A stretch of 62,126 nt of DNA, counting the filler, from Platydemus manokwari (lineage: Eukaryota), in the NCBI GenBank assembly GCA_037951405.1. It is 5 parts of 5 records of this genome, joined end to end, with 100 filler letters (N's around TTAATTAATTAA, not from the genome) between each part and the next. Parts side by side here need not be neighbours in the genome. Positions count along the whole stretch, not along the records: positions 1 to 9,488 come from JBBMOY011241874.1; 4 more parts are not named here. One strand, given 5' to 3'. Positions within the stretch are counted from its first letter, which is position 1. Each line of letters opens with the position of its first letter. Shown in pieces: positions 969 through 53,796 of this stretch. The notes under the pieces were generated by a model. It ran no database searches, was not told the origin of the DNA, and saw nothing but the letters and a program-made list of their open reading frames with translations. A program made the position numbers and the translations under genes.

Positions 969-2423
969 TTTATACAAAAGATATTTGATAGTCTTCATAT
1001 TTTTTCAGCTCCGGGTTGCTGTAGCTTTGAAGGAATTGTTTCCCCATTTCAGGCTTGCTGAATACCACAGGCGATATTATCGTTAGTAATGGCGGGAGAT
1101 TTGTTTCTTCTCTTGGTTCTGTCATCGGGTGGTCTTCATTTTCTTAATCTTCTGTTGCTGAGACGTATTTCCCTTCTGAGTCCTCTGGTTTATCTACTTC
1201 TGGGATTGCTTTGAAGACTTTGTAGCTTGGTTTGAATTGTTTTGTCAGATCTGGTGCTTCTTTCGGGCTAATTTTATTTTCGATTTCGATTGGGTCGTTT
1301 TCAGAGATTTCTTCTCTAGGAAGTATGAGATGATCCTGCCATCCATATTCCATGATGCGATATATTTCTAGTATATCGTATGCTTTTTGGCAGCTAACTA
1401 TTAGTTTTAGGTTAACAGGGTTATTTGGAATGAGTTTCTCTTTTAATTTTGTTAGTCTCTGGATTGCTTTGATAGCTCCTCCGTTTAGGTCGGTATTTGA
1501 ATAACTGATATCTCTTATTCCAAGAAGTCTGTGAGTAGGATAATTTAGAGCTTCTGGTGATTCGTTTACATTGTGCCCTATCACAATTCTTTTATCCAAA
1601 ACGGATATTATGTATCTTTTGATTGCTTGTTCATCCCAAGCGTCGATGATGCCTCTTTCTGTCAATTGATCCGTCCCTTGATTTCTCCAGTGTCGGATAT
1701 AATGTCGAGGTGTAACCATTGTATTGATTACAACTAGTCCCTTGTAAGTTAAAACGGTGACAACGCATACTGTCTTGTCAGATCTTTACTGCCTGTCATT
1801 TTGACGGTTTCCACTATTCGAGTGGCTAGGATTCTAATATTATTTCTGATTTCATCTGGAGGCAGATTCTTTCTAATGAAGGAATGCCTATTAAGGATGT
1901 CTTCTCTAGTATCTAAATATGTTAAGTCAGTATGGAGATGACTGTACTTTTCATCGGATGGAATGTCGTTACGACCGGATTCCAGGATTAAAGTTACTGG
2001 CATGGCTGAGAAGGAAACTCTTCCTTTCAGTATTTTTTCATCACATTGTTTGATGTCTAATGCATGATGTCTTGGGAGGAAGATTACTTCGGGAATTACG
2101 ATTGATATTTGAGCTACTGTAGTGTGTAGGTACACTTTTTCTGCTCCTGTAGCATTGTTGATATCGCTGAATAATTGTGATAAACAGGTAGTTCTCCTAT
2201 TATTAACGAATATGGCTTCTGAGGCTCTGTGACCTCTATTTGGGATTTTCATTTTGTTTGGTAAGTGTGTTTGGTCCTTAAAGGTTTGACTGTAGCAGGT
2301 TTTTTGTTCCATGTACGCATGGAAATTATTACTTATAACCGCATCTACAACATAACTTTGGAATTGTGGAATATTTGGTTGAGTGTGTTCCAATGAGTTG
2401 TGGATGACGTTGTATTGTTTCAT
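969..2423 (-). pseudogene. Accessory ORF-B: unknown N-terminal domain plus degenerate REX4/ISG20-like DEDDh exonuclease fold
   Basis: Track ORFs 1749-2447 and 1144-1719 join through a frameshift near 1785 (..ATRIVETVKMTGSK/DKTVCVVTVLTYKGLVVINTMVTPRHYIRHWR..SVLDKRIVIGHNV..LLGIRDIS). Reads on past one stop at 1144. Pattern matches REX4-like 'RVSIVNxxGxxxxDxYVKP..V.DYRT..LKGRILVGH..IRDTS'. Confidence 0.7.
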
Positions 2424-2755
2424 TTTCTGAAAATAAAGATTAAACATTTAAGGTTGATAACATATTGTATATAGTATTCGATATAATGCATATTATATTG
2501 AATATCATTAATAGATTGATTTTAGATATTTTAGACGTTTATATTTTATGCTTTGGTTATTTGTCATCCTTAAGGTGTGGTAAGTTTTTGATTTAAATTA
2601 TATCACTAAGAAATAAGTCATATGATAATAAAATGAAGACATAAGTTATATAACAAGAATGAAGACAAATTAATGATTACACAAAGTCATAAATAATCAC
2701 AATAATCAATCATTCTTGCTCGTCATTATCAGTATTTGGCTCTTTGTTTCACTTG

Positions 2756-4222
2756 TTATTTGTCTGTAGGCTTGTTGTCCGGCTTGAGTTTGGCTCTTGC
2801 TTGTTTCAAATCTGCATTACTGAAATCGAGACATAACTCATCTAAGTTGTCTTCATATGTATAGAGGATGGCCGTAATTTGCCATCTCTTATTATCGACG
2901 ATTATTGTTTGCAGAATTGTCTGTGGCAAATAAGGTGCCTTTTCGCCTCTTAGCTGTGGGATATCAGTGGTGATATCGGTGCTTATTGGTTCAATTTGAG
3001 CTCCTGTAGATGGGCTTGGCCCATACTTGCTCCTTTTCGACATAGGTTCTGAATTTCCTTCTTCTATTTCAATTTCTATTTCTCCAGCGTCCAAATCGAT
3101 GGATTCGTAATTTGATATTAGCTAAGTGGTGTTGACTGCTGGTATCCATTGCGCTTTCATAATGTTGTGGATTTCCTTTATTTGTTCCACTTGGTTGTTG
3201 GTTTCTAACTCGTGGATTTTCTTTAATGGGTTCGTCAGTAGTTTTTGTGCCACTTTTTCAAGTTTATATGGTTTTTTCTCATACAACTTGTACTTTGTTA
3301 ATAGTTCCTTTGTTGATATATCCTTTATTCCCATAATACGATATGTAGGGATTGCTAAAGCTTTTATTATGTCTGCCACTTGAAAGCCTATTAAGACTTT
3401 TTGATCGATTATTTCCTTGATTTTTTCATATTCTTCAGCTTGGTCCCATTGATTATTTAATTTTTCTTCATCCAATTTGTGAACATCTTTTCTGTAATGT
3501 CGGACGTAATTTCGAGGCTTAATTAATGAATTGATTAATAGTTGCCCGTTTTGATTGAGAATAGAGTTGGAGCAAATAGTAGTTATTGTAATTTTTTCCA
3601 AAGTATCCACATAGAATGCCGCTATGTATAACGTATTGGGTTGCTCCTCTTCTGGTGTGATATTTTGTTGCATGAACGATTCGCAAGCATCAAGTGTTTT
3701 GAGAGGGATTTCTTCAAATCCTCTGGTTATTGGATACGCTTTAGGTTCTTGTTCTTTTTTGATCATTTCCAGTTCCACGGCTGTTGATACATCTTAGCTT
3801 AGAAGGGTTATTCGTTCGACCCTTTCGTCATAATTTCCAAATTCTAAGCTGGTGTGAGGTGAGAGATGGATTGGTTCTCCTACTCCAGCGATGTAGACCG
3901 TAAGTGGCCTGTTAGATGTAATTAGGATTAGCGGGCTATAGTTTGTGTGATTTTGCAAAGCTGACATTAGCTGTATTAATTTTTGTACGTTTGTATAGGT
4001 CGGTAGAGCAGCTTGGATGTGTCTACTACCTGGTCCGCTATATTTGAGTTTGTTTGGGAGTCGTAAGTCATTTACGAAGGACACATATTTGGTGCCTTTT
4101 CTTGCTTTTATTGCTATATACTCATGATTTTGTAAGCCAACTGGTGCTTCGGTAGAGTAAGTATAGCAAGTTGCTTTACAAGTATAGGTAGACAGATAGC
4201 TTGAAACTTCGTATCTTGTCAT
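2756..4222 (-). pseudogene. Accessory ORF-A: paralog of ORF-B (N-domain, degenerate DEDDh fold, acidic linker, C-tail)
   Basis: Track ORFs 3794-4330, 3122-3778 and 2756-3094 are in one frame, separated by two stops. Contains SILNQNGQLLINSLIKPRNYVRHYR..IIDQKVLIGF..IMGIKDIS..YKLEKVAQKLL. Likely start MTRYEV at 4222 directly after a ttattacag acceptor. Confidence 0.7.
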
Positions 4223-4360: not shown

Positions 4361-5377
4361 TCATAAAGTTGTCAATGTGTATGACCTATTATTATTATTA
4401 TCAAAATAGGTCCTATTGTTCACACGTTCCTTCTTCTCTTTCCATTTGCCGATAATCATTACCATAAATGGTGTGGTTATAACTAGTAGTATCATTGAGG
4501 CGGCTATTAGCGTAATCATTACTTCCACTCTATTTATCATTTCTAATTTTTCTATTGATAGCATAGAACTTAATAGTTTTTGCTTGAATGGTATTATTTC
4601 ATTATTTTCTTCGTTTTGGATATTTTGGTTATCCTGTGGTAGTATTTGGCTTTGGTCTATGTCATTCTTGTTAGCTTGCTTAGTGTGTGACCATAATTGT
4701 GGTGATATAGTTCCCATTATTAGTTTTACCTTTTTAGTTATTGTTGCTTCAGCAGCTGATGTATTTCTTCTTGTTGTTATTCTTTTTTGTGTAGTTATTC
4801 GCCAATCACAATTTATTGCAGGTTTTATATCGTGTCTCGTTTATTTGTGTATTACGTGTGGTGTATCTCGCATGGCATGTGTTATAATTATTATATATTT
4901 TTCACATGGATCTCGGAGTAGATTCATTATCTTAGGTTTATGTTCTAATATCGTTTAATGTTTGGCTTCCTTTTTATTTTCTATTACCGTGGGTCTTATT
5001 ATATTATAGCTACTTTCAGCTTTTATAATTGAGACGTATCGTCTGTCGGATTCTATTGTTATTCTTGTAAAATGTGGCATTAATTGAATTTCAACTATAT
5101 CTCTGTCTATTAATGTGTGATTATTTTTAACATAACACTATAGTTCCATTTTTTTGGTTGCAATTTTTTGAATACATGCTCTTAAGTTACTATTGCTGAA
5201 TCAATAAGTTTACTTTTGTAAGTATATCATTTTATTTTGTTATAAAAAGGTATCGGGTACGTGTATTGCTATCTAGAATTCTGCCTAATTTAAACTCCAG
5301 TTATGTCTAATGAGAGGTGGTTTAGTGTAAATGTGACAATTAGCTATTGTTAACATAATTAGTAAAGTGATCATCAT
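4361..5377 (-). pseudogene. Env-position type I membrane protein (signal peptide, ectodomain, TM, basic tail), disrupted
   Basis: N-terminal MMITLLIMLTIANC; C-terminal VMITLIAASMILLVITTPFMVMIIGKWKEKK; several stops and frameshifts in between. Confidence 0.6.
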
Positions 5378-6236
5378 TCAGGTATGTGATCTGAGTGGAT
5401 ATCTATGGCTGGTTGATATTTGCTTGCTTGTTGTTGGTCTGATTTCATTTTCTTCTGCTCTTATCGTTCTTGTCTGTGTTGGTGTATTTATCGTTTCATT
5501 TTCGTATTCATCGTATTTTTTACATCGCTCTGCGTAAGCCATTTTGGATCAGCTTTATTTTTTCTTCGTGGTCTTACTACTAAGTTAGTATCCGTCACTT
5601 TTCTACTATATATGGTCCCTTATATGGTCGTATTAATTTTTTTGATATCCCCTTTTTGCACGTTCGATTTTCTATCATAATTTTGTTTCCTACTCGAATT
5701 AGATGATTTTTCCGGTTTCTGTCATAGTAGTTTTTCATTTGTTCTTGTCTATATTTAATATTAAGATTCGCTCTTTGCTAAGCTTCCGCGAGTCTTTCAT
5801 TCATTAATACCGCATAATCTTCAACATCCATGTATTGGGATATTTTTGGTTCTATTACTATATCGACTGGCATATTCTGAAAAACTCCGTTCCCCGATCG
5901 GTTAGGAGGCATTTAAGTGCACCATACCTATATACGATTTCCTCTACGAATATTTTAGCCACTGTGCTTGCCTTCTTGTCTGGTATCACGTAGGCTTCGG
6001 GCCATCTAGTCATATGATCAATGAAGACTAAAATGTATTTGTCCCCGTTCTTGCTCATTGGGAGAGGCACGACTATATCCATGGCGACTCTTTCCATTGG
6101 TGCGCCTGGAATACGTAACGGTTTTAATGTATTTAGTTCCTGTATTGCGTCTGGTCTCACAGATTTTTCAAGTCTGACACCATTGTTTGACATCGATTTG
6201 CATTGTGAGCCAGAAGTATTTTTGTTTAATTCTTGA
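5378..6236 (-). pseudogene. Gypsy integrase (partial zinc-binding region, DDE core, GPY/F remnant, YPLR tail)
   Basis: KQKYFWLTMQIDVKQWCQT*KIC; PMERVAMDIVVPLPMSKNGDKYILVFIDHMTRWPEAY..LLTDRGTEF; tail ERCKKY..HRYPLRS. Confidence 0.92.
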
Positions 6237-6681: not shown

Positions 6682-6850
6682 TGTTAAATAAACTTTTGGT
6701 TTTTTATTTTAACTGGCTCTTAAGGGGCTTCAATAACGGTTATGAAGACCTAGCTATTGGTAAATTAAAGGTTAGTATTATCTAAAGGTTTAAATCAGTT
6801 GATGATTTAGTCCTTTTTGATCATACCCAATACTGATCTCGAACGCTATA
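6682..6850 (-). repeat. LTR fragment sharing a ~70-nt core with 59440-59507
   Basis: Ends ..TTTAACA before the PBS; the homologous block at 59.4 kb lies a similar distance from its own ..ACA end. Confidence 0.5.
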
Positions 6851-7244
6851 ATATTAAATTGGTCAATCAATCAATCAATTTATGGGCTTAATTACTATTG
6901 CCATGCCCAATTTCTCAATTATTGGTGTACCGGTTCTTTCGGGTTTCTGTCTGGAGGGTGTTTTTGGTTTCTTGAACACGGGGTGTTTACTCGGTGATGG
7001 TTGTAGCAGTGTGTCCGGCTCTGATTTCAGCTTGGTATTTATACCGTGCTGTGCCGTCCTGCGCGATACTATTTTTAGTAGTCCGTTCGGCCTTTGTTAA
7101 CGTTTTGCATTTGCATATTCGTGTCTTATCTTGTTATTGTTTTTTGATATGATTTATATTATTATATTTTTTTCTTATTTGATTTCATTCTATTATAATT
7201 TTTTTTCTTTTATTTTATAATATTTTATTATACTTCTGACATAA

Positions 7245-28442: not shown

Positions 28443-29609
28443 CACTCAACCCTCATTAATCCGAACTTCAATAATCCGAAAACTTCATAGTCCGAAATAA
28501 ATTTGTTTGTTTCGTTATTTTCGAACGTTTCCAGACACATTTGATTCATTAAGCCGAAACTTCATGATCCGCCATCGGGAAGCTCTTTTTTGAATTAAAT
28601 TTATAATTTTTAAAAGTTTCGGATTAATGTTGTTTAAAAATTAAGCTTGTTTACAATTTTTTATTTATTTAAAATAAATATCCATATGGCTAGGTAAAGA
28701 ACAGAAATTACAATTTATCGAAAGGTAAAAATTTGTGCAATAAAGGAGTCAAAGAAAATGTCGCTGAGTGAATTGTCTCAAATTATCCGAAGAGAATTTA
28801 ATCTGGACCTAGGAATTTCAACGTTACCGAAAGTTTTGAAAAATAAAAAGAAATGATAAAATTGTGAAAGCTCAAACACTTACTCCTGACATTCTTCGAA
28901 AATTCATTCTCTACTTGAGAATTCATTGGTCGAACGGATATCTCGAATGGGTGCCATAAATGGTTACATGACTGATGAAATTATCATTACAAAAGCAAAG
29001 GAATTTGTTCACGAACTAAATGTTGATGACCTGCAATTCACCAAAAAATGGCCCTATAGATTCAAAAATCGATTTAATCTGAAATTGAAAGTTCTCCATG
29101 GAGAAGCAAATTCAATGAAAGATGTTGATGTTTCAGCCCATAAAAAATGGTTGAAAAATTTGCAGGAATTGACCCAGAGGTTATACTCAATATGGGTGAA
29201 ACTGAACTTTTTTTTCAACCATTTCATACAAGAACGATTTCATCAAGTGAAAGAAAAGACATAAAACAATCTAAAGTTAGAATAACCATAATTTCAAGCA
29301 ATTTATCCCATGCAATTGAAATTGTGATCAAAGCAAGTTCTTCTTCAAACAGCTCTACTCAAAAAATAACCAATGATACAATAAGAAATTTAAAAGAAAT
29401 CAAAGTTGATTCATCCAAAAGAAAACTTTTAGATTAAAAAATTTTAGATTATTTTTTAAATGAATAATTGTCTTTTTCTTAATATTTTCATTATTAATAT
29501 CATTTAGGTATGGTGATCATATAGATTTTAAATTCTTTCATTATTCGAATTAATTCACAATCCAAAAGTAAATCGATTTCTAATTATTCGAATTAATGAG
29601 GATTGACTG
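28443..29609 (+). mobile_element. pogo/Tigger-like DNA transposon, internally deleted, pseudogenised CENP-B-type transposase
   Basis: TA-flanked TIRs CA(C/G)TCAA(C/T)CCTCATTAAT(C/T)CGAA; IIITKAKEF..FTKKWPYRFKNRFNLKLKVLHGEANS and ILNMGETELFF motifs. Confidence 0.9.
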
Positions 29610-31140
29610 TAGTTTCATTATTCCAGCTTCTTGTATTCTTAATTTTTTAACTTCCGTACTAAATATTTTGTTTTATAAAGTAATAAAAATAAAAATAATA
29701 AATTCGCCTTCAACAGTTTTGTTTTGGTCCTTCATATGATTTATTAGTGTCTCAGATAAGAAACTTAAAGGACAAAAAAATTTAAAAATAGCCTCACGTC
29801 TCTGTAAAGAAAATAAAACAACCAGCTATAAATAATAGAAAAAGCAGAAAAATTAGAGAAACGGATTTTAAAAATTCCTGACAGCTAATATTTCACAAAG
29901 CATCTAGTTATAATTTGATATGTTAGGTAATGACGGTATAAGCAGTCGATTGTCTCGATCAACAGGATGTACCACGAAATAATGTTAGTTTTTAAAATGT
30001 CTTGTAAGATAAGTGGTGTCCGTCCATAAACTATTGGTATCCATCAATGTCACAATTAAATCTCATATATTTGATATTCGTGAATGTTTGTCAGTGAGCG
30101 TGATCGTTTCAATAAATTAATTCATAATTTTGAGCTTTTAAATTATTTGTAAAAATACTGTTTTTATTTCTGTCTTAAGAGCTGGATGGAAATGTTTCAA
30201 ATTATACAAATGTGTTCCCCATTGTTTGTTTACTCTTAAAGAAAAACGATTCACCGGTGAGTGTGGATCAAAACAGCTTTGGAACAATATGATCTGATCT
30301 TTATTTAGATTTATCAGTTTCTATTTTTATTTTATTTTACACTCAAATATTAACAATTATATCCAATAAACTACTTATATATTGTAAGCCGCCACTTTTT
30401 TATCAAATACTCATTAGAAATGAACTGAAAAAGCACAATTCCGAATCATTTATTTTAATACTGTTAGTAGCAGCCACTTCGCTTGAAATTGATGTTTCAA
30501 CAAAAGAAGTCATTATTATGATTTTCTTAATATTTATTTAAAAATCTAATTCATTTATACATTCTCAGATCCACATTTCTTTAAAATCTTTGATTTCCTT
30601 TGTATTCTTAATTGGGTTTTTATCGAACACTGTACATATTTATTTATATTGGGTGTATAACCTTAAAATTTCGATTTGATAAAAGATGTCGCTGGGAGTA
30701 TTGCTTGCATATAATGTCGNNNNNNNNNNNNNNNNNNNNNNNNNNNNNNNNNNNNNNNNNNNNTTAATTAATTAANNNNNNNNNNNNNNNNNNNNNNNNN
30801 NNNNNNNNNNNNNNNNNNNATGTTGTAACTTCCGATGGACATTACTTTGGATAACAGAATTGTACAAGATTTTCTTTAATAAACACTCAATTGTTCAAAA
30901 AAAATTCCGGTTTTTAAGTTATAGACCCAATATATGAGAATAAAAACTAGGATTTGATTAACCGGATTGATATTAGATCATAGAAAGTTGCTTGTACTAA
31001 TTTTTATTTTATTAGGCATTATTTAATATTTTTTTTGAAAGTAAAATAATTTAAATCAATGACCATGTGGGATTATATTTCTAATAAAACTAACATCAAT
31101 ATGCTCAAATTGCTTTCAAGTTGAATATAAAAAATATTAC

Positions 31141-31317
31141 CAGCCAGCAGTAAGATTCTGGTGTTTTGGTCATGAATTTCGATCTGTCTTGCTATATATT
31201 CTCCGTCAAAGTGTCCCCACCAATTACCACTTGTTGCTTTACCAGCTGGTGTTTTGAACGGCAGAGTGAAGTAACGCTGCTCATTCCTATTTGATGGAGA
31301 CGCTTTTGAGATAGTAG
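31141..31317 (-). CDS. Myo6: Myosin VI exon, cargo-binding domain
   Basis: QRYFTLPF..GNWWGHFDGEYIARQIEIH..ILLLAG matches the MYO6 CBD (QRFFRIPF..GWWYAHFDGPWIARQMELH..ILLVAG); AG/GT borders. Confidence 0.92.
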
Positions 31318-32903
31318 CTGAATTTTTAATCCAATTATATAAACTTATGTATTTGCACGAATAATCATAATATAATAAAATAATAATTAAAATTATCACA
31401 AAAATCGAAAACATAATTTTCCAAAGAAACTATAAACAGATTTTAAGGTGTATCTTAGTTAATACAATTTGCAGTCTTCTCTTCTGATTACCTTAAATCT
31501 AAAACTATTGAATTTGATGATTACGTACACGGATTGTACATTGGGTTGTCTAAGATCGAGAATATGTAGGAAAAGTTAAGTCGTTGAAGCATTCATTACA
31601 GGTTGAAATAATTATTAGAAATCTGAAATTTTGGAATTCATAAAAATATAGACAAATTGTCAAATGTGCCAAAAATTTTACAAAAAATTGGATTTTGTTC
31701 AAGACAAATTCAGGCCACAGATATCTCAAGATAAATCAAATTCGCTCAGTAAGCAAAAAAAATTTGGTTAAATGAAAGACAATTTCTCAGATAAAGGAAA
31801 ATAGAGGTCTTTGCCATCACTTAACAAAGCATCATTGACCGAAGAAAGTTTTACTATACAAGCAAACCGATCTGAGGAAGAAATCGCACAAATTTGAAGA
31901 GAGAAAGCGCCAACAAAGTATTTTCCTTTATTACAAATTCAAGCACAAAATATCACTCGTGTAATTTTTGTTAATTCAAGTACATTACCTTGGGACAAAA
32001 CTGAGGAGGAGATATCAACTGAAATCCAATTATATCTAAAGCTAACAAGACTAAGGTAGTGAACCCTCTAAAATACTGGCTATATCTGAACTAGTACCGG
32101 ATAAAGTCTCGTTCAGATCTATATCTGAGCATCGATACAAAAACTATATGAAACAAATCATTAATTATCACCAGCTCTAATACTTAACAATTGATATCCT
32201 AAGTATTGTAAAAGCACTCATCAAGTAAATATTTTACCTACTATATTGGATAGAATTATCTCTTATAAATCTGTGCCGTTCCCATTTAAATAAATAGGAT
32301 AAATTCATAATTTCACAATTTCTCAAATCTTTATTTTTGCAAAAGTAATTAGTACTCGGAGGTTAGGCAATAATTTTAACTGATGGAATACGAATCTTAA
32401 TATATTATAAAGCTTGGACAGAGAGAAATTCTCACTTATCTATTAATCAGTAATTATTATAATCATTGATCATCACTTTAAGTATAGGGAAAACTTCGAA
32501 CTACTGATATATCGTTGGAGTCAGATATGCCTACTTATGTCGAGAAATTGATTGTCATCATATTTTACAAATTGTGATTTATCTAGAATTCTGTGCTGGA
32601 ATTCGTGGTGTTAATATTAATCAGATTATTTATCTATCCGACTTTTCGCAACTGTTTAGCTAATAATTTTGGTTATGCATCCTATACCATCTTATTGACA
32701 TCTTGTTGTCTTATCCTTCTATCAACAAAAGTTTGACAACATTTTGCGGATTTCATTTTCACATCTTATTATGTCAATATTTAAGAGATAATTGTGAAGA
32801 AAAATGCCACTCAATTAGTTTGACATCAAAAATCCAATCCACATAAAGTTAAAGATAATAAATACTAAAGATTTTTCTATGAAATTGAAAGTTTTGTAAG
32901 TAC

Positions 32904-33077
32904 TTAACTTTGGAATATTTAAATTACTTTGAGGAGATTTTATTTGAACTGTATTTTCACCGAGTTCTACCACATTAGTATTTGTGTGTTTCTTTTCCTT
33001 TTGTTTGGCTTTCCAATTATTATAAGCATTAACACGACGATGAAATTCTGCCTGACATGCTTCAATCAATTTTATAT
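32904..33077 (-). CDS. Myo6: Myosin VI exon, tail (RRL-motif region)
   Basis: DIKLIEACQAEFHRRVNAYNNWKAK; splice phases match the neighbouring exons. Confidence 0.88.
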
Positions 33078-33130
33078 CTACAAGTCGTGACAGAAATATT
33101 GAATAACAATAACACAGACAAAATACAAAC

Positions 33131-33390
33131 CACATGATGTATTTATAAGTTTCCGTAATTCATCATAGGATTTCTCGGTTACATCATTGGGATTGACTGG
33201 AGATCGGGATCGATTAATTGTTGATTCTTCAATCACACCCGTATCTCCTTCAGCAATCCTTAATGCTAACTCCTTGTCTCTTTTTTCTTGTTCTTTTGAT
33301 AATTCTGCAATGTAATCCTCGGTTTCATTGTGAAGTTGTATAATTGGGGATGTCTTTTTCATTTTTTCTAATTTTTCTTCCTCTTTTTTT
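33131..33390 (-). CDS. Myo6: Myosin VI exon, MIU region and distal tail
   Basis: EQEKRDKELALRIAE and YDELRKLINTSC. Confidence 0.9.
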
Positions 33391-33447
33391 CTATTGAATA
33401 AAAATTTCCAAATCATCATCATTATCATCACTACAAAAATAACACAC

Positions 33448-33740
33448 CGTTTTTTCTCTAATTCCATTTTCAATTGCTTTTCATCATCCTCCAATTTTTG
33501 TCGTTGTTTTTCATCTTCCGCTTTTTGTCTTTGCAATTCCATTTCCATTTGAATCTTCTTCAGTTTTTCTTTCTCTGCATTGATTTTCTCCACTTGAACT
33601 TCGTTTTTGAGAAAACGTATATCGTTATCAAGACCGACCTGAAAGGTTTCGATAAGCTTTCTTACCGATGAGATTTTGCTTGGAGGTGTATTTTTGATTT
33701 CATTTTCCAGTTTAGTATACTTTTTCTTATTTTCTTCAAT
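33448..33740 (-). CDS. Myo6: Myosin VI exon, three-helix bundle and SAH region
   Basis: E/K/R-rich EKEKLKKIQMEMELQRQKAEDEKQRQK; AG/GT borders. Confidence 0.85.
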
Positions 33741-33918
33741 CTATAATGAAAGGAATAATCGATTCTATTTTATAAATATTTGTTTTAATAATCGATATGA
33801 TATAGAATACAATCAGTTTTCTTCACAAAGATATCACTGATGGTTTAGCAGCGAATTGAATTTTTTATATTTTAAAATCCAAAAATATTCCAATAATAAA
33901 AATAAAATCAAAATCTAC

Positions 33919-34112
33919 TATTTTCCGGCCCTTGTTATCTGGAGATTTCAATTGATTTGCGATTAACGATATTTTATCTATGAAACAATTCATTTCTCTT
34001 AGTTTCTTCAAACATTTGATTTTCGGTCCGAATTTCTTTTTTACAATCCACATTCGAATTGTTTTTTGAATTTTTATGATTTGCTGTCGGCGCCAGATGA
34101 TTTTATTTTTCA
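33919..34112 (-). CDS. Myo6: Myosin VI exon, IQ motif
   Basis: LKNKIIWRRQQIIKIQKTIRMWIVKKKFGPKI; donor position less certain. Confidence 0.85.
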
Positions 34113-35816
34113 CTGAAAAATATTTGATAAATTTTACATGTGATCAATAAATTTAAAAAAAATTTATATGAATTTGATTGAAAATTATCGATTTTTAAAA
34201 TCCACTGAGTTCAAAACAATAAGAAATATAATAAATCAATTGGATCATTATTGAGTGTGACAGAGAACAATAAGAATTTGAATTTTAAAATTTCATTTTC
34301 AATCTGGCGCATACCACAGAGAACTAAATCATACCAATTGTCAGGATTTATTGCTAGATGTGTTGAAATAATCTATTTAATGATGCATGAATAATCAATA
34401 CAAACGTAAATTAGGACGAGAATTAATATTTATTTGGTGACATCTATCTTAAGGTGATTTAAATCATCATCTGAAAAATGAATGGAATTTTTATGATTGG
34501 GAATAATTTGATCGAATATTTGAACTCGTATTGTGAATATCTACCATCAAAAAAATTTGACAATCACTTATTTTACAAACAATGATATAAATATTATATT
34601 TTAGAATTATAAATAATAATTAGTGATATTATTCTGTCCAAAACCTTGATATATTGAAAGAATGGACTAAATTTTATGATGATTGACCGAATAATATTAA
34701 ATTAAAAACACTAAAATTTACAAAACGACTTGTAAATTTTATTCCTAAACAAATAGTATTCAAAGCAGAATGTCTAATAATGAACCCCATAGTGGCAATT
34801 CGATGCACAATAATAATAAAAAATTCACAACATATCAGTCTCATAATACACATAAACACATGTACACAGAGACCCAATGAGAAATTCGTAAGGACTATTC
34901 TTCGATAGCAAGTGCTACTTCAATTATAGTGGCCGTAGAAATTTATGCAATGTTCGGTAATTATAAACAATAAATAAAACTTGACTCTACTTTGGAGGTA
35001 AATATATTTCTCGGTATAATGATCAATACACGAATAACAAAATCTCAACCCAAAATTGGTTTTCAACTTGCAGTTGTCCATCTTAACATCGATTTTTATA
35101 TTCGCGATCTGTGTATTTTTTATGTCATGTTGCATCGTACTTTGATTTGATATTTGTCTTTCTAAGTTCTTATTAGGCTTTTAAGTTTTAAAAGAGTGAG
35201 ATTGGTTAATCCCTATGTATGTGTTGTTATGTATCTATGGCTCTTTTTTCCATTGTAGTTCACCATTTAACTTCGCTATGATTGGCTGATTTCTATGTCT
35301 GTGTAGGCATGCAATTGTTTAAAGTGCCAAAACAAGGGTTCCAAGATGCAATTTGGTCTTTCTTTTTGTTGAATTTTATCTCACTCAACAGTATTTAAAA
35401 ATAATGTTTGCAATTTCGGAAATTACAGTAGTGTAGTACCGTACATAATAAAGATGAATTGGAGTACAGCCAGATATAGTTTCTAAGCTTACGTTTTTTC
35501 TTGTTTATCTTTGTGTAATTTACTGAATTGACGATATTTATACTTGGTCCTGGTGTGATATAAATATAAACTCTCAAAAGTGTTTAGACTTATTCCTCAA
35601 TGTGAACCAGATAGAGAAGTCGAATAATGGGATAAAGTTATGTTCTGCACAGTCCATAATTAACATTAATATTATCAATTAATCAATAGTTTAATCTAAA
35701 AAACTCAAATTTTAAATCATAAATTACTTAAATTAGAAATACAATTTCTCATATTAAATAGAATTATAATATTATCTATCTTATTATAAAAAACATAAAA
35801 TTCGAACTAAACCCAC

Positions 35817-36024
35817 GCTTAATAACTTCCCAAACGCCATACTGTGCCTTGCGCCAGCGATATTTAATAAGCCACTTTTTAACTCTGACAACCAAAATTT
35901 TTACATTCTCTGGATCTGATCGAATCAACTGATCGAATTCCGCCATTTTTCCTGGTCGAAAAAAAATCTTTGTCATACCAAACTGAAAATCGTTTTCATT
36001 GAGGCCAACAGCTTTGAAAAGTAA
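35817..36024 (-). CDS. Myo6: Myosin VI exon, converter and insert-2 (reverse gear)
   Basis: [43 protein letters not shown] is diagnostic of class VI. Confidence 0.95.
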
Positions 36025-37489
36025 CTGAAAACAATGATATATGTTTAATTCAATAATTACTACTTTATTTACAGAATAGTACACAAAGAGTCAAACAAGG
36101 TAACATTTATTCTCTTAAATATACCAAACATTTATCAGAAATATGAGAAATCTTAGCATTTTAAATAAGAAACCTCAACAATTAAATCTATTAAAATCAT
36201 GATCAGAAATTGATGTTATCTTCACTTCTATATTGATAGGTATCAATGTAGTTATAATTAATGAAATAATTTTTTATTATTGGTCTGTAACCTGAATGAC
36301 ATTGGGAGCTCATGATGATACAAAACTTCAATTCATATATATTGGTTGTCAACAATCACTAGTTTCAGTTTATACCACTCTCAGTTTTTAGGATTATTTT
36401 GATTTGTTTAGCTCATTTATGCTAATTATTGACAATGACTTGAGCATTTTACTGGATTCACAAATTTTAATAATTCTATTTGCTTCTAAAGAGATTGATT
36501 TTGAAAATAACATTCTGAGGTCTACAGAGACCCACAATATCGGGGAAGTAAAGGCAAGTAATTATTGTATTTTTAATCACCTTATTAAGATATGCTTGAT
36601 TATTCGATAAGGTGGAGATTTTTAATAACCCCGAAACGAACAAAGAATCAAGAATATTTATAAATTAGTTGATCAATTTGAAGATAATTTTTTCTGAATA
36701 TTATTTTGAATAAAATCAACTACTTTATATTTATAAATAGTTAATATGTGCTTAACTTGATTATATTGTTATCGCACAGTTATAAGTTCATTCTTTGAAA
36801 ATTTTCAGATTCATCTGAATGGTCCAACAAAACCCCATGCAAATTTTAATTTGCATATGTAATATAATAACAGACAATTAGATTTCGAAAATCCATATCA
36901 GACCTCGAAATATATGGAACTTGATTACAACCATTAAGCTGTAAAATTTATTCTCTATCTTTTTCAGTGTCTTCACTTTGATTCTGGATCTAATCCAAGA
37001 ATGACTAAGAATATTAAATCCTGTTCTGGTAATGAAATGTGGTCGTGAGACCACTTTTTAAAAAATGTATTCATGTATTGAATAATAATATATTATTTAG
37101 GGAAAACAATAAATATCTCGTCAAAGAATCCTCCAATTTTGTAATAAAAAACCACAAAATGTCAAATCTTCTCTTGTTATTCTTCAAAACGATATCATCA
37201 TCAAAATTTCAAATCCGTAGGTCTGCTATTAATGGAAAACAGCACAGAAATTTATTGATTTATGTTTATAACATTTCATTTGATATAATTTTCTGTTTGC
37301 TTAAAATAAGCGTTAATGAAGATTTGATTAATTTCAGTGATTTACCGTGCAAAAGGTAGATTGAAGTATTGATAGAAAATTTTCAGAAACAAAGTTAATC
37401 AATTAATAAAAAATCCTTTAAATTCTCTCAACTAATATAATAAAGTAGTATATTATTCTAGCATTATCTAAAAATTAAAATGAGCTTAC

Positions 37490-37714
37490 TTTACAAAATA
37501 ATCTTTGATCTAGTTTGGCTAAATTTGCTGGTAACAGCTTATAATAAATGTTGTATAAATCTATGAATTTTATTCGGCTTGGGTAACCCTGTTGCATCAG
37601 ATCTAAAACAACTGTCATTCCAGAACATTGAAGCTGACTGAGCACATTTCCACCTTCAAAAGATTTTGACACCATGGTAACGTTAGGCTTGATACACCTT
37701 ATAAAGTTGGTATC
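37490..37714 (-). CDS. Myo6: Myosin VI exon, motor domain (SH1/SH2 region)
   Basis: [33 protein letters not shown]. Confidence 0.93.
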
Positions 37715-37849
37715 CTATATANNNNNNNNNNNNNNNNNNNNNNNNNNNNNNNNNNNNNNNNNNNNNNNNNNNNNNNNNNNNNNNNNNNNNNNNNNNNNNN
37801 NNNNNNNNNNNNNNNNNNNNNNNNNNNNNNNNNNNNNNNNNNNNNNNNN

Positions 37850-37980
37850 GATTTCTGCAGCTTTTCCATCAAAACCGATAATTGCGATCTAAATTTACTG
37901 GCAACACTGATGAAAGTAAGTTTTCCCGTTGTATGGCCTTTTTTATTTGATGTCAATAAATTACTTTCCATTGGTTCTTT
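37850..37980 (-). CDS. Myo6: Myosin VI exon, loop 2 (runs into the gap at 37722-37849)
   Basis: GKLTFISVASKFRSQLSVLMEKLQK. Confidence 0.88.
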
Positions 37981-38031
37981 CTGTAAATCAAAACAGCTCT
38001 TTAAAATCATCACAATACATTTTGCTCAAAC

Positions 38032-38223
38032 CTCAAACATTTGTCGCATCAATGGAATAGTACTTGTTTCAAGAAGAGTTTTAAGAGAATCATGAAGTGC
38101 ATCATTGTTTTTCTCAATAAAACCTTCAGTGTGATAGCAAACAGCTCCGGCAAAATGGCGGATTAAAAAACCCTCGTTGTCTCTTAACTCTCGATGGGAT
38201 TTCAGTTTCGATTTTCGAGGTAA
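38032..38223 (-). CDS. Myo6: Myosin VI exon, motor domain
   Basis: [44 protein letters not shown] (not in the ORF track). Confidence 0.95.
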
Positions 38224-40652
38224 CTAGTAAAACAGTAGTAGTAAAACAGTAGTAAAACAGACAATTAATAAATTACGAACGAACGAACATATATATATAT
38301 ATATAAACCTAGTTTAGGTTCGATTCTAGTAAAGATTGTTATTGTATTGATTCGACCAACCTTTATTGAAGATTTATAACGTATTCTCATCATTGCTGCA
38401 TTTGTACATCACTTATTTTCTCAAGTGCTTGTTGTGAATTATTGTTATTATTATTTCATTATTTATATTATATTTGGATATTATAGTTCTAGTAAACCAG
38501 GAATTATATCGATATACTTTAAATTTAAACATTTTCAATTAAAATTTTCCGTTAATTATTAATTTTCCCCTTAGTTAAATATAATGAAATACTTTGTACG
38601 GATAGAACTGATTTAATTAAAAACATTTTTTGTTAAATAAATAATAATTTTGTATATATGCATGTTGAAAGTATTAGTTAATGTATTTTTCAAACTTACA
38701 ATTAATTCCGATATTTTCACTCTCTGCTGTATTGTAATGAAGTTATTTGCAAAGAATAAATATCATTAACTCATCAACATCAAGCTGAAATTTTTGTAAA
38801 TACACACCATCAGAAAATGATGCACACTAAATACTTATAGATTTTACATTAATGATAGATATGAGATTTAATATCGATAATTTACAACAATTTTATTACA
38901 ATTTTACAGCATAACCATCTATCGAATAAATCAGGTTCTTAAGAACCTTCATTGAACTTAAAATAAACCAATAAACAATGAGAATCGTTAAATCTAACAT
39001 TGTTTTGAACGGGGCATATTTTTAATGTAATATTTTGTCCACAATTTCATCATTGTAGAGTCCAGATGCTTAAATACTATTTCATTGAATTAAACTCTAT
39101 AAGAAACAAATTAATTTGTTCAAGGTTACCAATTGTATTTTCCAAGGCCACCATCAATTTACTCTATCTGCTTATGCATAAAATGATTTTAAATATAATA
39201 CTAGACAGACCACTACACATTAATATTATTCTGTAGTTATTTAAATGAAAAACATCAATAATTTAATATCGACTATTAAATTATTTTCCATTGTTTAATT
39301 TATTTTTGGTTTGCAACGAATTTTCTCGTAGTAAACAGAGAGCAATAATATCAAATATTTTCCTCAATAAAGATCGAGAACATTTCTGATTATACAAGGA
39401 TAAAACATTTCAAATTCGTTATTATGAATTTTTTTAATGAAATTTTTAAATTAGATTTGAAATATCAAACCGGATGTAATTTGTGCTCACAAATTTCGAA
39501 AATATTTAAGAAGTCGTCACAATGTAGATTACTATCAACTTTCTTATGACGGTCAGTTGCGCATTAATCGATTGCGACTCCTTTTGTGTTGTTCATTGAG
39601 ATTTGATTTCAGGTATTGTAATATAATCAATGCTATTTGGATTTCAATTGGTGAATTATCACTTGATTTTATGAGATTGTAATAATAATGTTTGAATAAA
39701 TTTAAAAGATATATTTGAAACAACAATCATAAAACCACGACTAATTTCATAAGAAGAGATCATTTCACATTCTCAAATTCCATATTTCTACCGGTGACTT
39801 TCAAAGAGAGTAAATTATATTTGACAAAGTATTACTGTGGTTGTTATGTAACACATAATTGATAATGGTAATGATCTCGTTATAATAATTGGTTTTCAAT
39901 TAATATTTCAGGTCCTGAATCAAATTTGTCCTGTGGTTATTTTTTCATTATTTACTTGAATTTCAAATGAATTTCAATTTAACGATATTATCTCAAGTAT
40001 TTTGTTCTTTCTCCATTCATTTATGTTTAGAAAAGTTAAAGGAGTGGAGAATAACTTACTATTTGATTTGTTTGTCAATATCTTCATCAAAGAGGTATTC
40101 GATAAAAAAAATTTCTTTAATAATTTTTTCAACAAATTTCCAATTTCATTTAAGAGGTAAAAACTCTATTAATGGCGATGCTAAAAACTAGCAAGTAAAC
40201 CAAAAGTATGAATTTTGTTTTAAATTATTATTTTAACTAATTAATTATTAAGATTTATATTGTAACTTTAAAATATTTATATTATATAAAATTAAATTGG
40301 AAATTACTCAATTTTTGATGTAGAGGATCCTATATTTTCTAAAATGTCACTCTGTATCTCATAAATCAAAGCTCCACTTTTCATATGGTCATGATAATTT
40401 TATAAGAATGTTAACTTTTAGAAAGTAACCAAGGCTCTAAAATAAGATTCTTGGCTTAAAAATATTTATATAAGACAGTCAGGGATCTGGAGAGAATTAT
40501 AGTGAAAACAGAAAATGGTTATAATAGAGTTCAAAAATGTTTAAAGCTTGCCTAAAGACTAACAAACAACCTTTGGTTTTCGATGTATCATAAACATTAT
40601 TAACATTTCCTAAGCTGATTTTGCAATTTTGAAAGGATAATTTATGTTTTAC

Positions 40653-40780
40653 CTGAAGTCGAAAATGATTAGGATTCACTGAAAATATGGAAGTTGTGAA
40701 ATGATCGGCACTGGGTTTTGGCAGTTTGCTCTCTTCGTCTAGAATATCTATAATTCCTGAAGATTTCTTTTCGATAAGAT
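40653..40780 (-). CDS. Myo6: Myosin VI exon, motor domain
   Basis: DLIEKKSSGIIDILDEESKLPKPSADHFT. Confidence 0.93.
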
Positions 40781-41568
40781 CTGAAATAGTAATAATTGTT
40801 ATTAAAATAATGTGTCATTAGTATAATAATAATTGTTATTATTAAAATATTATTAATAATACTATGATGATATCTGTTGGTTGGTATTGCTCATTTCTTT
40901 AATTGATGTAAGTTTATAAAATTAAATATATATAAAGTGACGTTAATGAAACATTCTTACCATGGTTTTACAGAACATTTTCAATCTATACAACTATATA
41001 AGTCAATGATAAATTTATGTCTAACACAATTGGTTTGGAAACATTTATCTACAATATTTTGGTATAAACATGTAAAATAAAATCACTAATTTATTATTTT
41101 AATTTAGGTAATGGACTAATGTTATAAAATATTTGAGCTCAATAACATAACAGTATAAAAAACTCTTAATTTTTACCCTAAAATTTAAAACAGGGAATTA
41201 TGAATTGACCTTTGATAAGATTGAAAGTCCAAGACAACCTTAAAGATAATAATAGAATTTTACAATAAAAATATATAAAATTTTGATCACATCGGTTATA
41301 TTTCTTAAAAATAGTATGTTTTAAAATATTATTGATGTACAAAGCAGAAACTGATTATTTTTCTATTAAAACTGATTGGCCAACAAAGAATCTTTTTAAT
41401 AGAAATTTTAAGTTGAAAAATAAAAATCCATGAAATGGTATTTATGAGATGCATTTCAGTTATAGATTTAGAATTTGTTAACGTAAAAAAAGAAATGCAT
41501 GGCTATGACCAATTAATACTCTTACGATTTTTTAGAGAAGCATATATGTGTTATATGTGAGATATCTA

Positions 41569-42883
41569 TTGGGTTGGTGCAAAAATTCGTGTGGTTTCAT
41601 TTGTTGCAAAGAAAACACCATTTTAATTGATTTGAATTATATTCTTTCAACTGAATTATCTATTTTATCTATTATTATCATTTTAGACTAACTTTCAATT
41701 TCATTACCTTCATTAAAATGGTATGTCAGGTAGATAAAAATGAACATTTCTGGTATCCTCTCCTTTTCTATTTTAATCAACATTTAAATGCTGCAGAAGC
41801 CACCAGAATGATTTATTGTATTTATGGAGAAAAGGCAGTCAGTGAAGGAACAGCACAAAAGTGGTTTTCGAAATCTAGCAGTTGAAATTTTGATTTAAGC
41901 GATACAACTCGGTCAGGCCGACCTAGTGACTTTGATGAAGATTGTTTGACCCAATTGATTCATGATGATCCGAGTCAATCGACACGAGCGCTTAGACAAA
42001 CCATAGATTGTGATCGCATCACTAATTCTCGATATCTCCAAAAAATGGGAAAAGTTCAAAAGCTTGGATCCTGGGTACCTCACCTTCTCAAAAAAAGTCA
42101 CAAAAATCAACGTGTTACGTATTCTACATCTTACTCGTTTGGTATCAATCTGCTGTGCAGCAACACTAATCTTTCCTTTCCAGAATCATCACAGGTGATG
42201 AAAAACAGTGCTTGTATGTAAATTTTAAACACAAAACAACTTGTGTAAGTCCTCAAAAGCAACCAAAATCACATGCAAAATCCGAAGTTCACCAACGCAA
42301 ATTCTCGTTGTGCATTTGGTGAAACCAAGCTGGTGTTATTCATTGTGAAATCTTGCCAGGAAACCAAACAATCAATTTCGAACTTCATTGTGGACAACTC
42401 AAGCGATTAAAGCGAAGAGGACCAATAAGAATCAGATAATTTTACAGCATAGCAATGCTCGGCCTCATGTCATCACAATGACAAAGTTGGCTATTAAAAA
42501 GTTTGGCTGGGAAGTACTTCCACATCCTCCATATTCGCCCGACTTAAGTCCAACAGATTTTCATTTTTTCCGCTCCATGTTGAACCATCTTTCTGGTCTC
42601 ACATTTAAAAACGAAGAAGCAATAACATCGTGGATTGAACTATGTTTGGACCACAAATCACCAAGCTTCTTCAAACGTGGGATTGACAAACTGCCACAAC
42701 GGTGAAAGGAAGTGATCGATTGTTGCGGAGAATATCTCACCGATTAAGACTGAGATATTTGTTTTTTCTAATGATTTCATAAATTCATTTTGTTATCTGG
42801 AATTTTTTACATGGTTTTTATTGTTGATCAGTATGCATTTTTCATAATTTTATAAAATCGCATGAACTTATACACCAACCTAA
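41569..42883 (+). mobile_element. Full-length but inactivated mariner transposon in a Myo6 intron
   Basis: TA-flanked TIRs TT(G/A)GGTTGGTG(C/T)A..; transposase at about 41718-42747 with WVPHLL and HPPYSPDLSPTDFHFF motifs, frameshifted. Confidence 0.95.
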
Positions 42884-43019
42884 TATTTATGCTAAATATT
42901 CAAAGTTATAATTATGAATCACAATTGTACAAAAATTGTTTAAGTAATATGTTTTACGAATATAATTTATGAAGTCTGCAATTGATATGCTTCTAATTCT
43001 GACAACCAAGAAATTAACA

Positions 43020-43430
43020 CTACTAACATGGCGACACGCACTTGGAATCGATTCTAAGTCGACGAGTACCGGACAAAATCAGAAATAAAGATAAAAATGA
43101 GAGACACTGAAGACGTGTCGAAGAAGAAGATGGTTGTAAAAATACAGGATACAATCAGAGAAAAGGAGAAAGAAGTGAACACAGTAGAATCAGATGGGTG
43201 GATATCAAAAAAGGAACAAATCAACGAGTAAGGAAATTGGGATTAAGACCAGAGATTAGGGTATGTTACAACTGCCAAAAGCCAGGTCACATATCAAGGA
43301 AGTATGAGACGAAGAAAATTATTATATACTATGCACTCAACAAAAGAGGACATACAGCCAGAGATTTTGCAAATTCGAAAAAGTGTAATAGATTTCAATA
43401 CAGAAAATAACACGAATTCGGACAGAAAAA
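43020..43430 (+). mobile_element. LTR-retrotransposon gag fragment (two decayed CCHC zinc knuckles)
   Basis: CYNCQKPGHISRK..KRGHTARD; upstream ..AACA TGGCGAC resembles an LTR-end/PBS junction. Confidence 0.65.
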
Positions 43431-44152
43431 GACAAATCGAAAATTTTACATAATTGTAATATTATATGATACAAACGAAATGTATTTGATTTGTTGGCTA
43501 AAGTTAAAAAACCGGTCCTAAAGTAAAATTTTAAATATGTTGAGTGTATTGGAAAAATTTATATAGTTTATTTAATTATATTATTTAAAACACTTTGAAT
43601 TTTTTATTTAAGTACTTAAGAAGAATTTTAGTTGTTTGAAATAGAATATTTAATACACTGGAGTTTAAAAATCTCCTAAAATTTGATTATTTGATAAACT
43701 CATCAAAGTAGGTCAAATTGGAATTTATTGAAAATTAGCGTGGGTCCCTTTTTTAACATTAAAAGCAAATTGAGATATATTCTCAATTTTTACAATAATT
43801 TTATAAAAATAAGCAATGATATTATTAAACATATCTGTAATTAACTAACTCGATTTATAATTATAAAAATTAAAATTTAAAAACTAAAACAATCACATAG
43901 ACACGTTGTGATTAGAATAGGAACTTGGTTTTAAAACTATTGTCACTCTTAAACATCCGAAAGAGTGAGATATTAACTGAATTATACAAATAAATCAAAC
44001 ATCGCAATTATATATAAAATTAAGTTACAAAATGCATTATTACAAAAGTAGGTCAAAGGACCCCGTCTCTTAACCTAAGCCGATTTATTTATTAAAGTTT
44101 TTAAATTTTCAAAATGCTCTCTTATTAATTCCAACATGAAAACAATAATTAC

Positions 44153-44317
44153 CAATGCAATCAGAATTGTCAACGAATTTGATTTTGGAAAGTCCAAGAC
44201 CTTCTTTTTCGTAAAGAATTTGTTCTTCAACAAGAACATGTTCATTGAAAAATTGTTGCAGTTTTTCGTTGCAATAATTGATACAAAATTGTTCAAAACT
44301 GTTCTTTTCGAAATACT
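44153..44317 (-). CDS. Myo6: Myosin VI exon, relay helix
   Basis: [41 protein letters not shown]. Confidence 0.95.
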
Positions 44318-45519
44318 CTGTAATTAAATGTTTTTAGATTAAAGTATTAATAGAATAGTGTGATTTAATCAATCTTTTAATGAAGTTTCATGATCTTAAC
44401 CTATTATATGAAAATAATCTAAACTAAATATTATCAGTGGGTATTGACATAATTTTGAGTATTATGATTTATAAGACTGTCGAACTCGATTAATATTGCT
44501 GCACATGTCACTGGGAAAATAGTAATATCAACAGAATTTAAGAAAAAACCTGACAAAAATTAATTCAAATTTAAAAATTAGTTAGGAATTTAAAAGAATA
44601 ATTCTTATATTATACTTCTGCAAGATTAACATTATAATCTTAACACAAAACTTAAGATTAAGAGGTGATAAATCTTAGATTTACATACGAATTTTTTGTC
44701 ATCACTGGCCGTTGATCTATCTTTGGTTTTATTTTTGTAAATTGTGAAGTTTTAAAAATTAAAAGTTTTTTAAAAGTTTTTAAAATTAACAACAAAATTA
44801 ACAACATCTTTGTACCGTCAATGCAGCCAATCAAATTTAACCACTTTTGTTATGTTTAAAGACTAAATTTTAAAATAATTTAGTGATATTAAAATTATTA
44901 CTAACATACTGTAAATGATGAAGGGATTTTAGATCAAGAAAGCTAAAAAATAAATCATCAGATTTTAATTTCTTTAATTAAAATTTAAAATTTTCATTTG
45001 AAATAATTTAAAATAAATAATGCGTTTTAACAAGTATAATTAAAAATTATTTAGTTGATAAACATTTTTCAAATATTTTTTAAACTTAATCATAAAAACA
45101 TTATATTTAAATTAAAAACAAATAATAATTAATTCAACTCATTATAATGAATAACTAACCCGAATTTATGAGTCATAAATCTATGTAAAATTTGTACCAT
45201 TGTTTACATCAAATTATATATTTTTTCAAATTAGTTTCAAACATTTTCTATAAACGGTAAAGGCTTAACTTATTTCATGTATTACTTAAAATTATTGTTT
45301 CCAATTTATTTACAATGTTTACTTAACTATGAACAGAACAGAAAACTTAAACCTTAATTAAGAAAAATTCCCAAATAGAGTTCCTATCGATAGTGTGACA
45401 AAGATAAATTTAAATTTGAAAATAGAGTCAAAGTAATAATAAATTATTAAAGTAAAACGTTTTCATATTTATACTGATTTCATTTTCCATATAAAGAATT
45501 TCTTTAGATGAATACCTAC

Positions 45520-45822
45520 CGAATCCAGCGATATCTAGAATGCCAACATAGTTAACAGAATCCTTAAACGGCAAGGCTCGATTTACAAAAGCTACAATCT
45601 CATCGAACAGACGCACGTATATTGCTTTGCTCAACGCATCTCTTGCACTCTGAGCGTCTTCTGGTTTCAAAGCAATTCTAAGAGCTGTATTTTGTGCTCC
45701 CCGACCAGCAGCACTAGTAAATCTATTACATAACGATTCTGCCAACGACTTAGATTCAAAACCCAATAATCGACAGGTGGATTGAAGAGCTGATTGGCTA
45801 CCAGCAGATATTTGACATCCAC
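45520..45822 (-). CDS. Myo6: Myosin VI exon, switch II
   Basis: ARDALSKAIYVRLFD..YVGILDIAGF. Confidence 0.95.
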
Positions 45823-46967: not shown

Positions 46968-47148
46968 CTTGAGAAGAATCGACCTCTTCAAATTCAATAT
47001 TTCCTAAGTGTAAAATAGCTGCCACAATGCCAAAGATATCCTGGCGTTCGCTATCATTAATTCCCATATCTTTCATGGCTTTGTTTGTCCGTGCATAATC
47101 GGTGATGTCATTTAATTGTATATCACTGAGACATCCCGATTTTAGAAA
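46968..47148 (-). CDS. Myo6: Myosin VI exon, motor domain
   Basis: AMKDMGINDSERQDIFGIVAAILHLGNIEFEE. Confidence 0.93.
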
Positions 47149-53645: not shown

Positions 53646-53796
53646 CTTTCCTATTCTCCTAATTGACTTTATTTTTCTTTCCTGTTTTATTTCACTTGTT
53701 TTTATAGTGTTAATATTTGGAACATATTTCCGAGTTTGAGTAGATTGCTTTCTTAATGTTTCCTTTCTAGCTATTGGCTGTACTTCTTCAGCTTTT

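Follow-up and report, generated by a model that had tools for sequence, protein, structure and literature searches.

We analysed a 62,126-nucleotide stretch of the Platydemus manokwari genome (GenBank assembly GCA_037951405.1; five parts joined end to end with filler between them), referred to below as the window. It is AT-rich animal DNA with assembly gaps, mostly 21–35% GC per kb, and carries two decayed Ty3/gypsy elements, both on the minus strand. At the 3′ side of these elements lie three broken open reading frames (ORFs), ORF-A, ORF-B and ORF-C, which share an N-terminal domain (the N-domain) fused to an exonuclease. Of the pol gene, Element 1 keeps integrase fragments only (5545–6236; Pfam rve, E 3e-10). 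They are followed, in the env position, by a decayed ORF whose translation has a signal-peptide-like start and a C-terminal hydrophobic segment (4361–5389) and then by ORF-A and ORF-B in tandem. Element 2 retains remnants of protease, reverse transcriptase, RNase H and integrase (53797–57358), with Pfam matches to RVP, RVT_1, RT_RNaseH_2, RT_RNaseH, Integrase_H2C2, rve and, weakly, Integrase_p58_C, in the order of Ty3/gypsy pol. Downstream, in the env position, its translation shows decayed ORFs that have hydrophobic segments at either end (51622–53807), and ORF-C lies 3′ of these. Apparently, two successive membrane-anchored ORFs, rather than one env, once stood between integrase and ORF-C in Element 2. 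No Pfam match was found for the env-position ORF of Element 1 (5389–4361), and none above cut-off for those of Element 2, of which three pieces were tested; in errantiviruses, the Ty3/gypsy elements that carry env, pol is followed by an envelope gene of the F or gB type. The integrases of the two elements are 41–46% identical.

The first-pass annotation had listed motifs shared by the three ORFs and proposed an unnamed N-terminal domain common to them. The motifs are indeed present, all on the minus strand, and the N-domain spans 3752–4222 in ORF-A, 1977–2423 in ORF-B and 50703–51289 in ORF-C, where it is frameshifted near 50800. Pairwise Smith–Waterman comparison clearly related A to B (score 87, z 11.6, with none of 3000 shuffles as high), whereas C was marginal on pairwise evidence alone: the A–C and B–C scores were 54 and 47 (z 4.7 and 3.1), and were equalled or exceeded by 5 and 37 of 3000 shuffles, respectively. 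The membership of C was settled by a profile built from 43 outside relatives and no window sequence. Run against all six frames of the window, this profile matched only C (51106–50801, 30.5 bits, with a tail at 50774–50703 in another frame, 4.1 bits), A (4132–3752, 28.1 bits) and B (2330–1980, 21.4 bits). In a shuffle test with 2000 shuffles per copy, of which 1895, 1977 and 1989 were reported for A, B and C, the profile gave the real sequences 39.0, 31.2 and 37.0 bits and the best shuffles 8.7, 16.2 and 13.2 bits, respectively; no shuffle reached the real score for any copy. The score of A is partly circular, since the relatives were found with A as the query; those of B and C are not. When clusters of relatives were left out in turn, the N-domain was recovered in 40 of the 43 at 15 bits or more. 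The shared N-domain is real and family-wide. The collinearity proposed for the N-termini holds for A and B but not for C, the first ~60 residues of which are unmatched by the profile.

All three ORFs are broken pseudogene copies. ORF-A is interrupted by stop codons at 3794–3796 (in frame, inside the last strand of the N-domain) and at 3122–3124, ORF-B by a frameshift near 1780–1800, and ORF-C by its frameshift plus several stops. The window copies almost certainly make nothing today.

Using ORF-A as the phmmer query against 1.84 billion representative sequences, we obtained 61 relatives outside the window at E≤0.001, the best with E 5e-38; word-index searches for homologues of A alone had come up empty, and only the full HMMER scan brought the relatives to light. 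A search with the family alignment returned four proteins among 8000 scored candidates, three of them new. The relatives are only 15–36% identical. Those with the N-terminal region form a 43-row alignment, from which 18 of the 61 were left out as fragments or chimeric gene calls; it underlies the window profile search, the leave-cluster-out and catalytic-column counts, and the tree, a quick IQ-TREE run without bootstrap whose support values are from the Shimodaira–Hasegawa-like approximate likelihood-ratio test (SH-aLRT). The ESM Atlas held no usable match for the N-domain of B or for residues 1–140 of one relative, P0013.

The first-pass annotation had treated the domain on its own; it makes up, in fact, the N-terminal half of a protein whose other half is a DEDDh exonuclease (defined as in PMC9157404), a fusion carried in Ty3/gypsy elements. 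Both domains, N-domain first and 20–77 residues apart, are present in 46 of the 64 retrieved proteins, a count with some circularity in it, as 43 of these proteins had served to train the profile and the nuclease drove retrieval. The remaining 18 have the nuclease alone, and none has the N-domain alone. The exonuclease-only entries look truncated, as 17 of the 18 start less than 100 residues before the nuclease. The source family of this second domain is that of the ISG20/ISG20L2/REX4/SDN1 DEDDh exonucleases (PF00929): the family profile matched ISG20L2, ISG20 and SDN1 (E 1.3e-30, 1.1e-18 and 1e-14, respectively), PF00929 itself matched in many relatives, and the sequence homology spans ExoI to ExoIII. 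No double-stranded beta-helix (DSBH) domain, the fold to which the N-domain is assigned below, was matched in the structures of these enzymes.

In the window, the exonuclease domain lies at 3143–3634 in ORF-A, at 1788–1333 in ORF-B (within a segment, 1144–1976, of linker, frameshift, exonuclease-like domain and tail) and at 50250–50567 in ORF-C (the ExoI–ExoII region, with stops). An exonuclease profile built from homologues scored 120.9, 85.5 and 47.2 bits on A, B and C, respectively, and the pairwise z was 25 for A–B and 13.2 for C against A. The catalytic columns are intact in 23 of the 43 aligned relatives (ExoII has Asp in 10 of them and Glu in 13) and absent in 19, one row being truncated. 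The window copies, unlike ISG20/REX4 enzymes, lack catalytic residues wherever these can be read: ORF-A has none (D-E-D-D plus His), ORF-B lacks those of ExoII and ExoIII, its ExoI falling at the frameshift and being read by eye, and ORF-C lacks those of ExoI and ExoII, its ExoIII not being located. A and B cluster with five relatives whose nuclease is dead (SH-aLRT 92), so their own nuclease loss predates the decay of the copies. On the quick tree the dead state needs up to four changes, and it may have had one origin.

Downstream of the nuclease, ORF-A continues past its stop at 3122–3124 into an acidic linker and a beta-rich C-terminal motif (tail 2756–3124). The motif itself, of ~30 residues, lies at about 2908–2822 on the minus strand and follows an acidic linker at the end of many relatives too. 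The motif profile scored 8.9 bits on A, a score reached by 1 of 845 reported shuffles, and recovered 14 of 17 hand-picked tails when each was left out; it did not find the motif in the tails of B or C. It is possibly a third, interaction module. In the linker on the other side of the nuclease, an Arg and a Ser just before the domain do not vary among the 11 nuclease-intact rows aligned (P0013, P0015, P0018, P0022, P0024, P0030, P0032, P0033, P0047, P0051 and P0057), which suggests that the linker belongs to the working surface of the nuclease. A complex prediction for the N-domain with the P0030 nuclease scored 0.00; alignments were unused and the fold of the partner was uncertain, so that the result is evidence neither way.

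The N-domain remains unnamed, as first described: no Pfam family names it (0 of 33 members matched), and NCBIfam matched the nuclease part only. With 48 sequences, AlphaFold2 modelled it with a predicted local distance difference test score (pLDDT) of 84.9 and a predicted template modelling (TM) score of 0.79; with the three window copies alone, the pLDDT was 31. From the sequence, a cupin or DSBH fold had been guessed. The DSBH is supported by the pLDDT-84.9 model and by three fold searches of PDB structures, and as a prediction it is well supported; the best structural matches, however, were 2-oxoglutarate (2OG)-Fe(II) oxygenases, with small cupins little over one Z unit behind. Foldseek placed PHD2, ALKBH8 and further proteins with a DSBH at the top (best E 9e-5). 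A VIA-align search of 48,161 chains placed ALKBH7 first (Z 10.0, root mean square deviation (rmsd) 2.9, 130 residues aligned), ALKBH6 and an algal prolyl 4-hydroxylase having Z 9.9 and 9.7, respectively, and all top 10 rows were 2OG oxygenases. In a second structural look ALKBH5 gave Z 10.4 (rmsd 4.0, 137 aligned). The same VIA-align search gave the pirin YhhW Z 8.8 (rmsd 4.2, 107 aligned) and the small cupin HP0902 Z 8.6 (rmsd 3.0, 96 of 98 residues aligned). The model contains the small beta-barrel of the cupin superfamily, and it also contains the DSBH core with the N-terminal strand and helix extension of the 2OG-Fe(II) oxygenase superfamily. The 2OG oxygenases aligned over 128–137 of the 145 model residues, including this strand and helix, and the small cupins over 89–107. 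The 2OG-oxygenase subclass thus fits the model slightly better, its lead being little more than one Z unit together with this wider coverage.

The N-domain nevertheless appears to have lost what would make it an enzyme. With positions set by strand order and a motif scan, the iron-binding triad of 2OG oxygenases, HxD/E...H, is not conserved, which points to a pseudo-enzyme: only 3 of 48 rows have an HxD/E or HxH beginning within model positions 60–72, the region of strand II, each at a different place, and strand VII has no conserved His. A basic residue to bind the 2OG carboxylate was not found in the last strand either, since columns 129–139 hold at most 3 Arg in 46 relatives; what is conserved in this strand instead of Arg is Glu or Asp, carried at position 137 by 44 of the 46. 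The metal motif of cupins is HxH...E with a downstream His; strand II lacks a conserved HxH. His is conserved at position 86 only, where 41 of the 46 relatives keep it and window copy A does not. Together with P41, N42, K/R45, R52, S/T110 and E137, H86 is conserved in nuclease-intact and nuclease-dead members alike. Hydrophobic columns alternate with H86 and E137, so these two probably face away from the barrel cavity, and they would form a structural or binding patch. Judged by its residues, the N-domain fails as an enzyme of either family and resembles the dead oxygenase fold of poxviruses. An active AlkB had also been considered, the last strand resembling the C-terminal motif of AlkB; it was rejected, as the metal and 2OG residues are absent.

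An origin of the N-domain from a small cupin (RmlC/pirin-like) rather than a 2OG oxygenase, with His86 and Glu137 as a real ligand or metal site, is a possibility that we hold only tentatively. The nearly full-length alignment of HP0902, the score of the pirin, and the conservation of His86 and of Glu/Asp137 are in keeping with it, as is the spacing of the last strands, which resembles the cupin pattern. Such an origin accounts less well for the longer coverage of the 2OG oxygenases, for the lack of a conserved HxH, for the probable orientation of the two residues away from the cavity, and for copy A, which does without His86.

Dead 2OG-oxygenase folds have a viral precedent. Poxviruses are described as carrying five proteins with inactivated 2OG-Fe(II) dioxygenase domains, vaccinia C16/C10, C4, A37, F11 and A51 (10.1101/2022.11.22.517515), and the N-terminal parts of C16 and C4 as binding host PHD2 and filamin B (PMC10949515). 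These domains, as presented there, are like the N-domain in being compact 2OG-oxygenase folds of ~140–190 residues with replaced iron ligands in a virus-like carrier. They differ in that no sequence similarity to them was shown, and in that the N-domain sits in retroelements and is fused to a DEDDh nuclease. The N-domain of vaccinia C16 matched the model (VIA-align Z 8.3, rmsd 3.5, 123 aligned), and cellular oxygenases outscored it; with this and the lack of sequence similarity, independent capture is at least as likely as kinship with the poxvirus proteins. The shared fold also bears on whether the family is mainly one of host or DNA-virus genes, of which the window copies would be chance captures by two retroelements. 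The best two-way match in a library of viral models, an unnamed 140-residue protein (TM 0.64/0.65), fits that account, and a retroelement context is known for the two window elements only. We regard it as very unlikely nonetheless: two distinct elements, with integrases as diverged as given above, carry the gene at the same 3′ position and intronless; short metagenome contigs (2.2–4.1 kb) are the source of the four relatives for which this is recorded; and GTDB genomes (39 and 45 pattern matches, of which none was confirmed) and phages yielded no relative.

Accessory ORFs of other retroelements also provide parallels. Phalaenopsis Ty3/gypsy elements are reported to carry an AlkB/2-ODD ORF that is an active N6-methyladenosine (m6A) demethylase (PMC9289625); there too an extra ORF with a 2OG-oxygenase fold resides in a Ty3/gypsy element. 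The orchid ORF, as portrayed in that source, was captured recently, stands close to plant ALKB and is active, whereas the N-domain is unrecognisable by sequence, lacks the metal motif, is fused to a nuclease, resides in an animal element, and has about 145 residues against about 200 in AlkB. Juno and Vesta long terminal repeat (LTR) retrotransposons and Terminons of bdelloid rotifers are described as carrying a DEDDy exonuclease as ORF3 (PMC5408684; cited also in PMC6338049 and PMC6431247), likewise a DEDD-superfamily 3′–5′ exonuclease in an accessory ORF that follows pol on its 3′ side. PMC5408684 describes a DEED variant in rotifer ORF3, with which the Glu at ExoII in 13 of the 23 intact relatives may be compared, and the same source names the PIWI-interacting RNA (piRNA) factors Maelstrom and EXD1 as inactive DEDD proteins. 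Rotifer ORF3 is DEDDy and RNase D-like, and no oxygenase-like partner is described for it in the accessible parts of these papers; the present family has, in contrast, DEDDh nucleases of the ISG20/REX4-like type, joined to a DSBH and, in 19 of 43 relatives, dead. We found no DSBH–DEDDh fusion in the literature searched; most subscription journals, CDD and the repeat databases Repbase, Dfam and GyDB lay outside the search, and the repeat databases may contain such ORFs. None was seen in the accessible parts of the errantivirus papers PMC13524379 and PMC13172572 or of the RNA-virus structurome PMC11796362, and in the main text of the first of these, a survey of 1512 env-carrying Ty3/gypsy elements, AlkB is absent and 'nuclease' stands in a reference title only. 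Each part of the fusion has a precedent; what is uncatalogued is the pseudo-oxygenase–exonuclease family.

The homology of the copies, the predicted fold, the missing metal motif, the fusion, the split into intact and dead nucleases and the position in two elements are what we take as established. From these we lean, with a fair degree of confidence, towards a Ty3/gypsy accessory protein in which a dead 2OG-Fe(II)-oxygenase-like module is joined to an RNA-trimming or RNA-binding nuclease, with a proposed counter-silencing role. Its architecture would be a dead DSBH, a linker of 20–77 residues, an ISG20/REX4-like DEDDh 3′–5′ exonuclease and an acidic tail, often ending in the short beta motif. 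The DSBH module would perform no chemistry; rather, it could bind an RNA or protein partner through the patch of P41, N42, K/R45, R52, H86, S/T110 and E137 and so aim the nuclease. Nuclease-intact members may then trim single-stranded 3′ ends, and nuclease-dead members, such as the A and B lineage, may bind without cutting, as decoys or scaffolds. The element would most likely benefit by interfering with host control by small RNAs or RNA surveillance; the fused protein may once have helped the elements to handle RNA or to blunt host silencing defences.

The same architecture might serve the housekeeping of the element instead, in processing or protecting the 3′ ends of its own RNA or cDNA or in ribonucleoprotein assembly, with host defence uninvolved. 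REX4/ISG20-type enzymes are described as trimming structured RNA ends (PMC9157404), and such a role is proposed for rotifer DEDDy ORF3 in PMC5408684. We nevertheless consider housekeeping possible rather than probable, and place counter-silencing ahead of it, because of a pattern: the relatives are highly divergent, the nuclease site is frequently lost (up to four changes on the tree above, or possibly a single origin), and Element 1 keeps two diverged tandem paralogues. Such turnover would suit a factor in conflict with the host better than a replication enzyme. A more specific version of counter-silencing is that an AlkB-derived dead domain recognises RNA modifications, such as m6A on transcripts of the element or methylation at the ends of small RNAs, and delivers the marked RNA to the exonuclease, the two forming a reader-nuclease that serves as a widespread counter-defence of invertebrate retroelements against piRNA or epitranscriptomic silencing, with nuclease-dead paralogues like ORF-A and ORF-B as decoys; this we think improbable.

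Several observations weigh against the accessory-protein reading as a whole. The counter-silencing role would follow by analogy. Self-BLAST and a repeat search showed no LTR pair around either element; the elements are decayed, Element 1 runs to the edge of the window, and a gap of Ns follows Element 2. Residence in retroelements is established for the two elements of the window only. The search for relatives was dominated by the nuclease, and stand-alone N-domains could have been missed by it. ORF-C sits on a long branch among mostly nuclease-intact rows of the quick tree, and its nuclease loss may be separate or due to decay. The catalytic positions of the N-domain were mapped by strand order and motif scan rather than by residue-level superposition. 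A Z of ~10 is moderate, with small cupins and pirin at 8.6–8.8, and the link to 2OG oxygenases is structural, at 5–13% identity. Sequence profiles picked up neither AlkB nor cupins: in tests for which 31 of the 46 N-domain relatives entered the alignment (PDB, hhalign and Pfam), hhalign to E. coli AlkB gave a probability of 0.2–0.4%, and the seven PDB rows at E≤10 were all unrelated. Blank results at the sequence level are to be expected at such identity.

Beyond env, the accessory gene content of animal LTR retroelements has been catalogued poorly. The present family adds a defined domain for which no profile existed, and at least 46 relatives have both domains; among those scored, about half keep an intact nuclease site open to direct assay. 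If counter-silencing is its true role, animal retrotransposons would encode a candidate suppressor of the host's RNA surveillance, and poxviruses, which have repeatedly reused dead 2OG-oxygenase folds, would offer a parallel; if it is not, invertebrate repeat libraries still gain a useful annotation for a new domain.

Other features of the window surround the two elements. A 126-bp sequence just 3′ of ORF-C (49518–49643) recurs with 85% identity at 6879–7004; this second copy, upstream of the Element 1 integrase, is a remnant of another insertion resembling Element 2. Upstream of Element 2, a purine-skewed, ORF-rich decayed stretch on the minus strand (59443–62126) includes a 219-residue frame with a small Cys motif; four pieces tested gave no Pfam match above cut-off, and the stretch is probably another mobile element. 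An 89-bp segment at 59439–59527 is echoed, inverted, at 6702–6789 (81% identity). The window also holds exons of the host myosin VI gene at about 31076–47148 on the minus strand, covering the motor, lever arm and cargo-binding domain; Element 2 lies 5′ of the exons identified, in an intron or upstream. A DNA-binding fragment of a Tc5/pogo-type transposase is present at 28926–29264 on the plus strand (PF03221, E 8e-9). Finally, short tandem repeats with units of 17–43 bp and a 71-bp duplication occupy 121–767, where a 3′ untranslated region would lie downstream of ORF-B.

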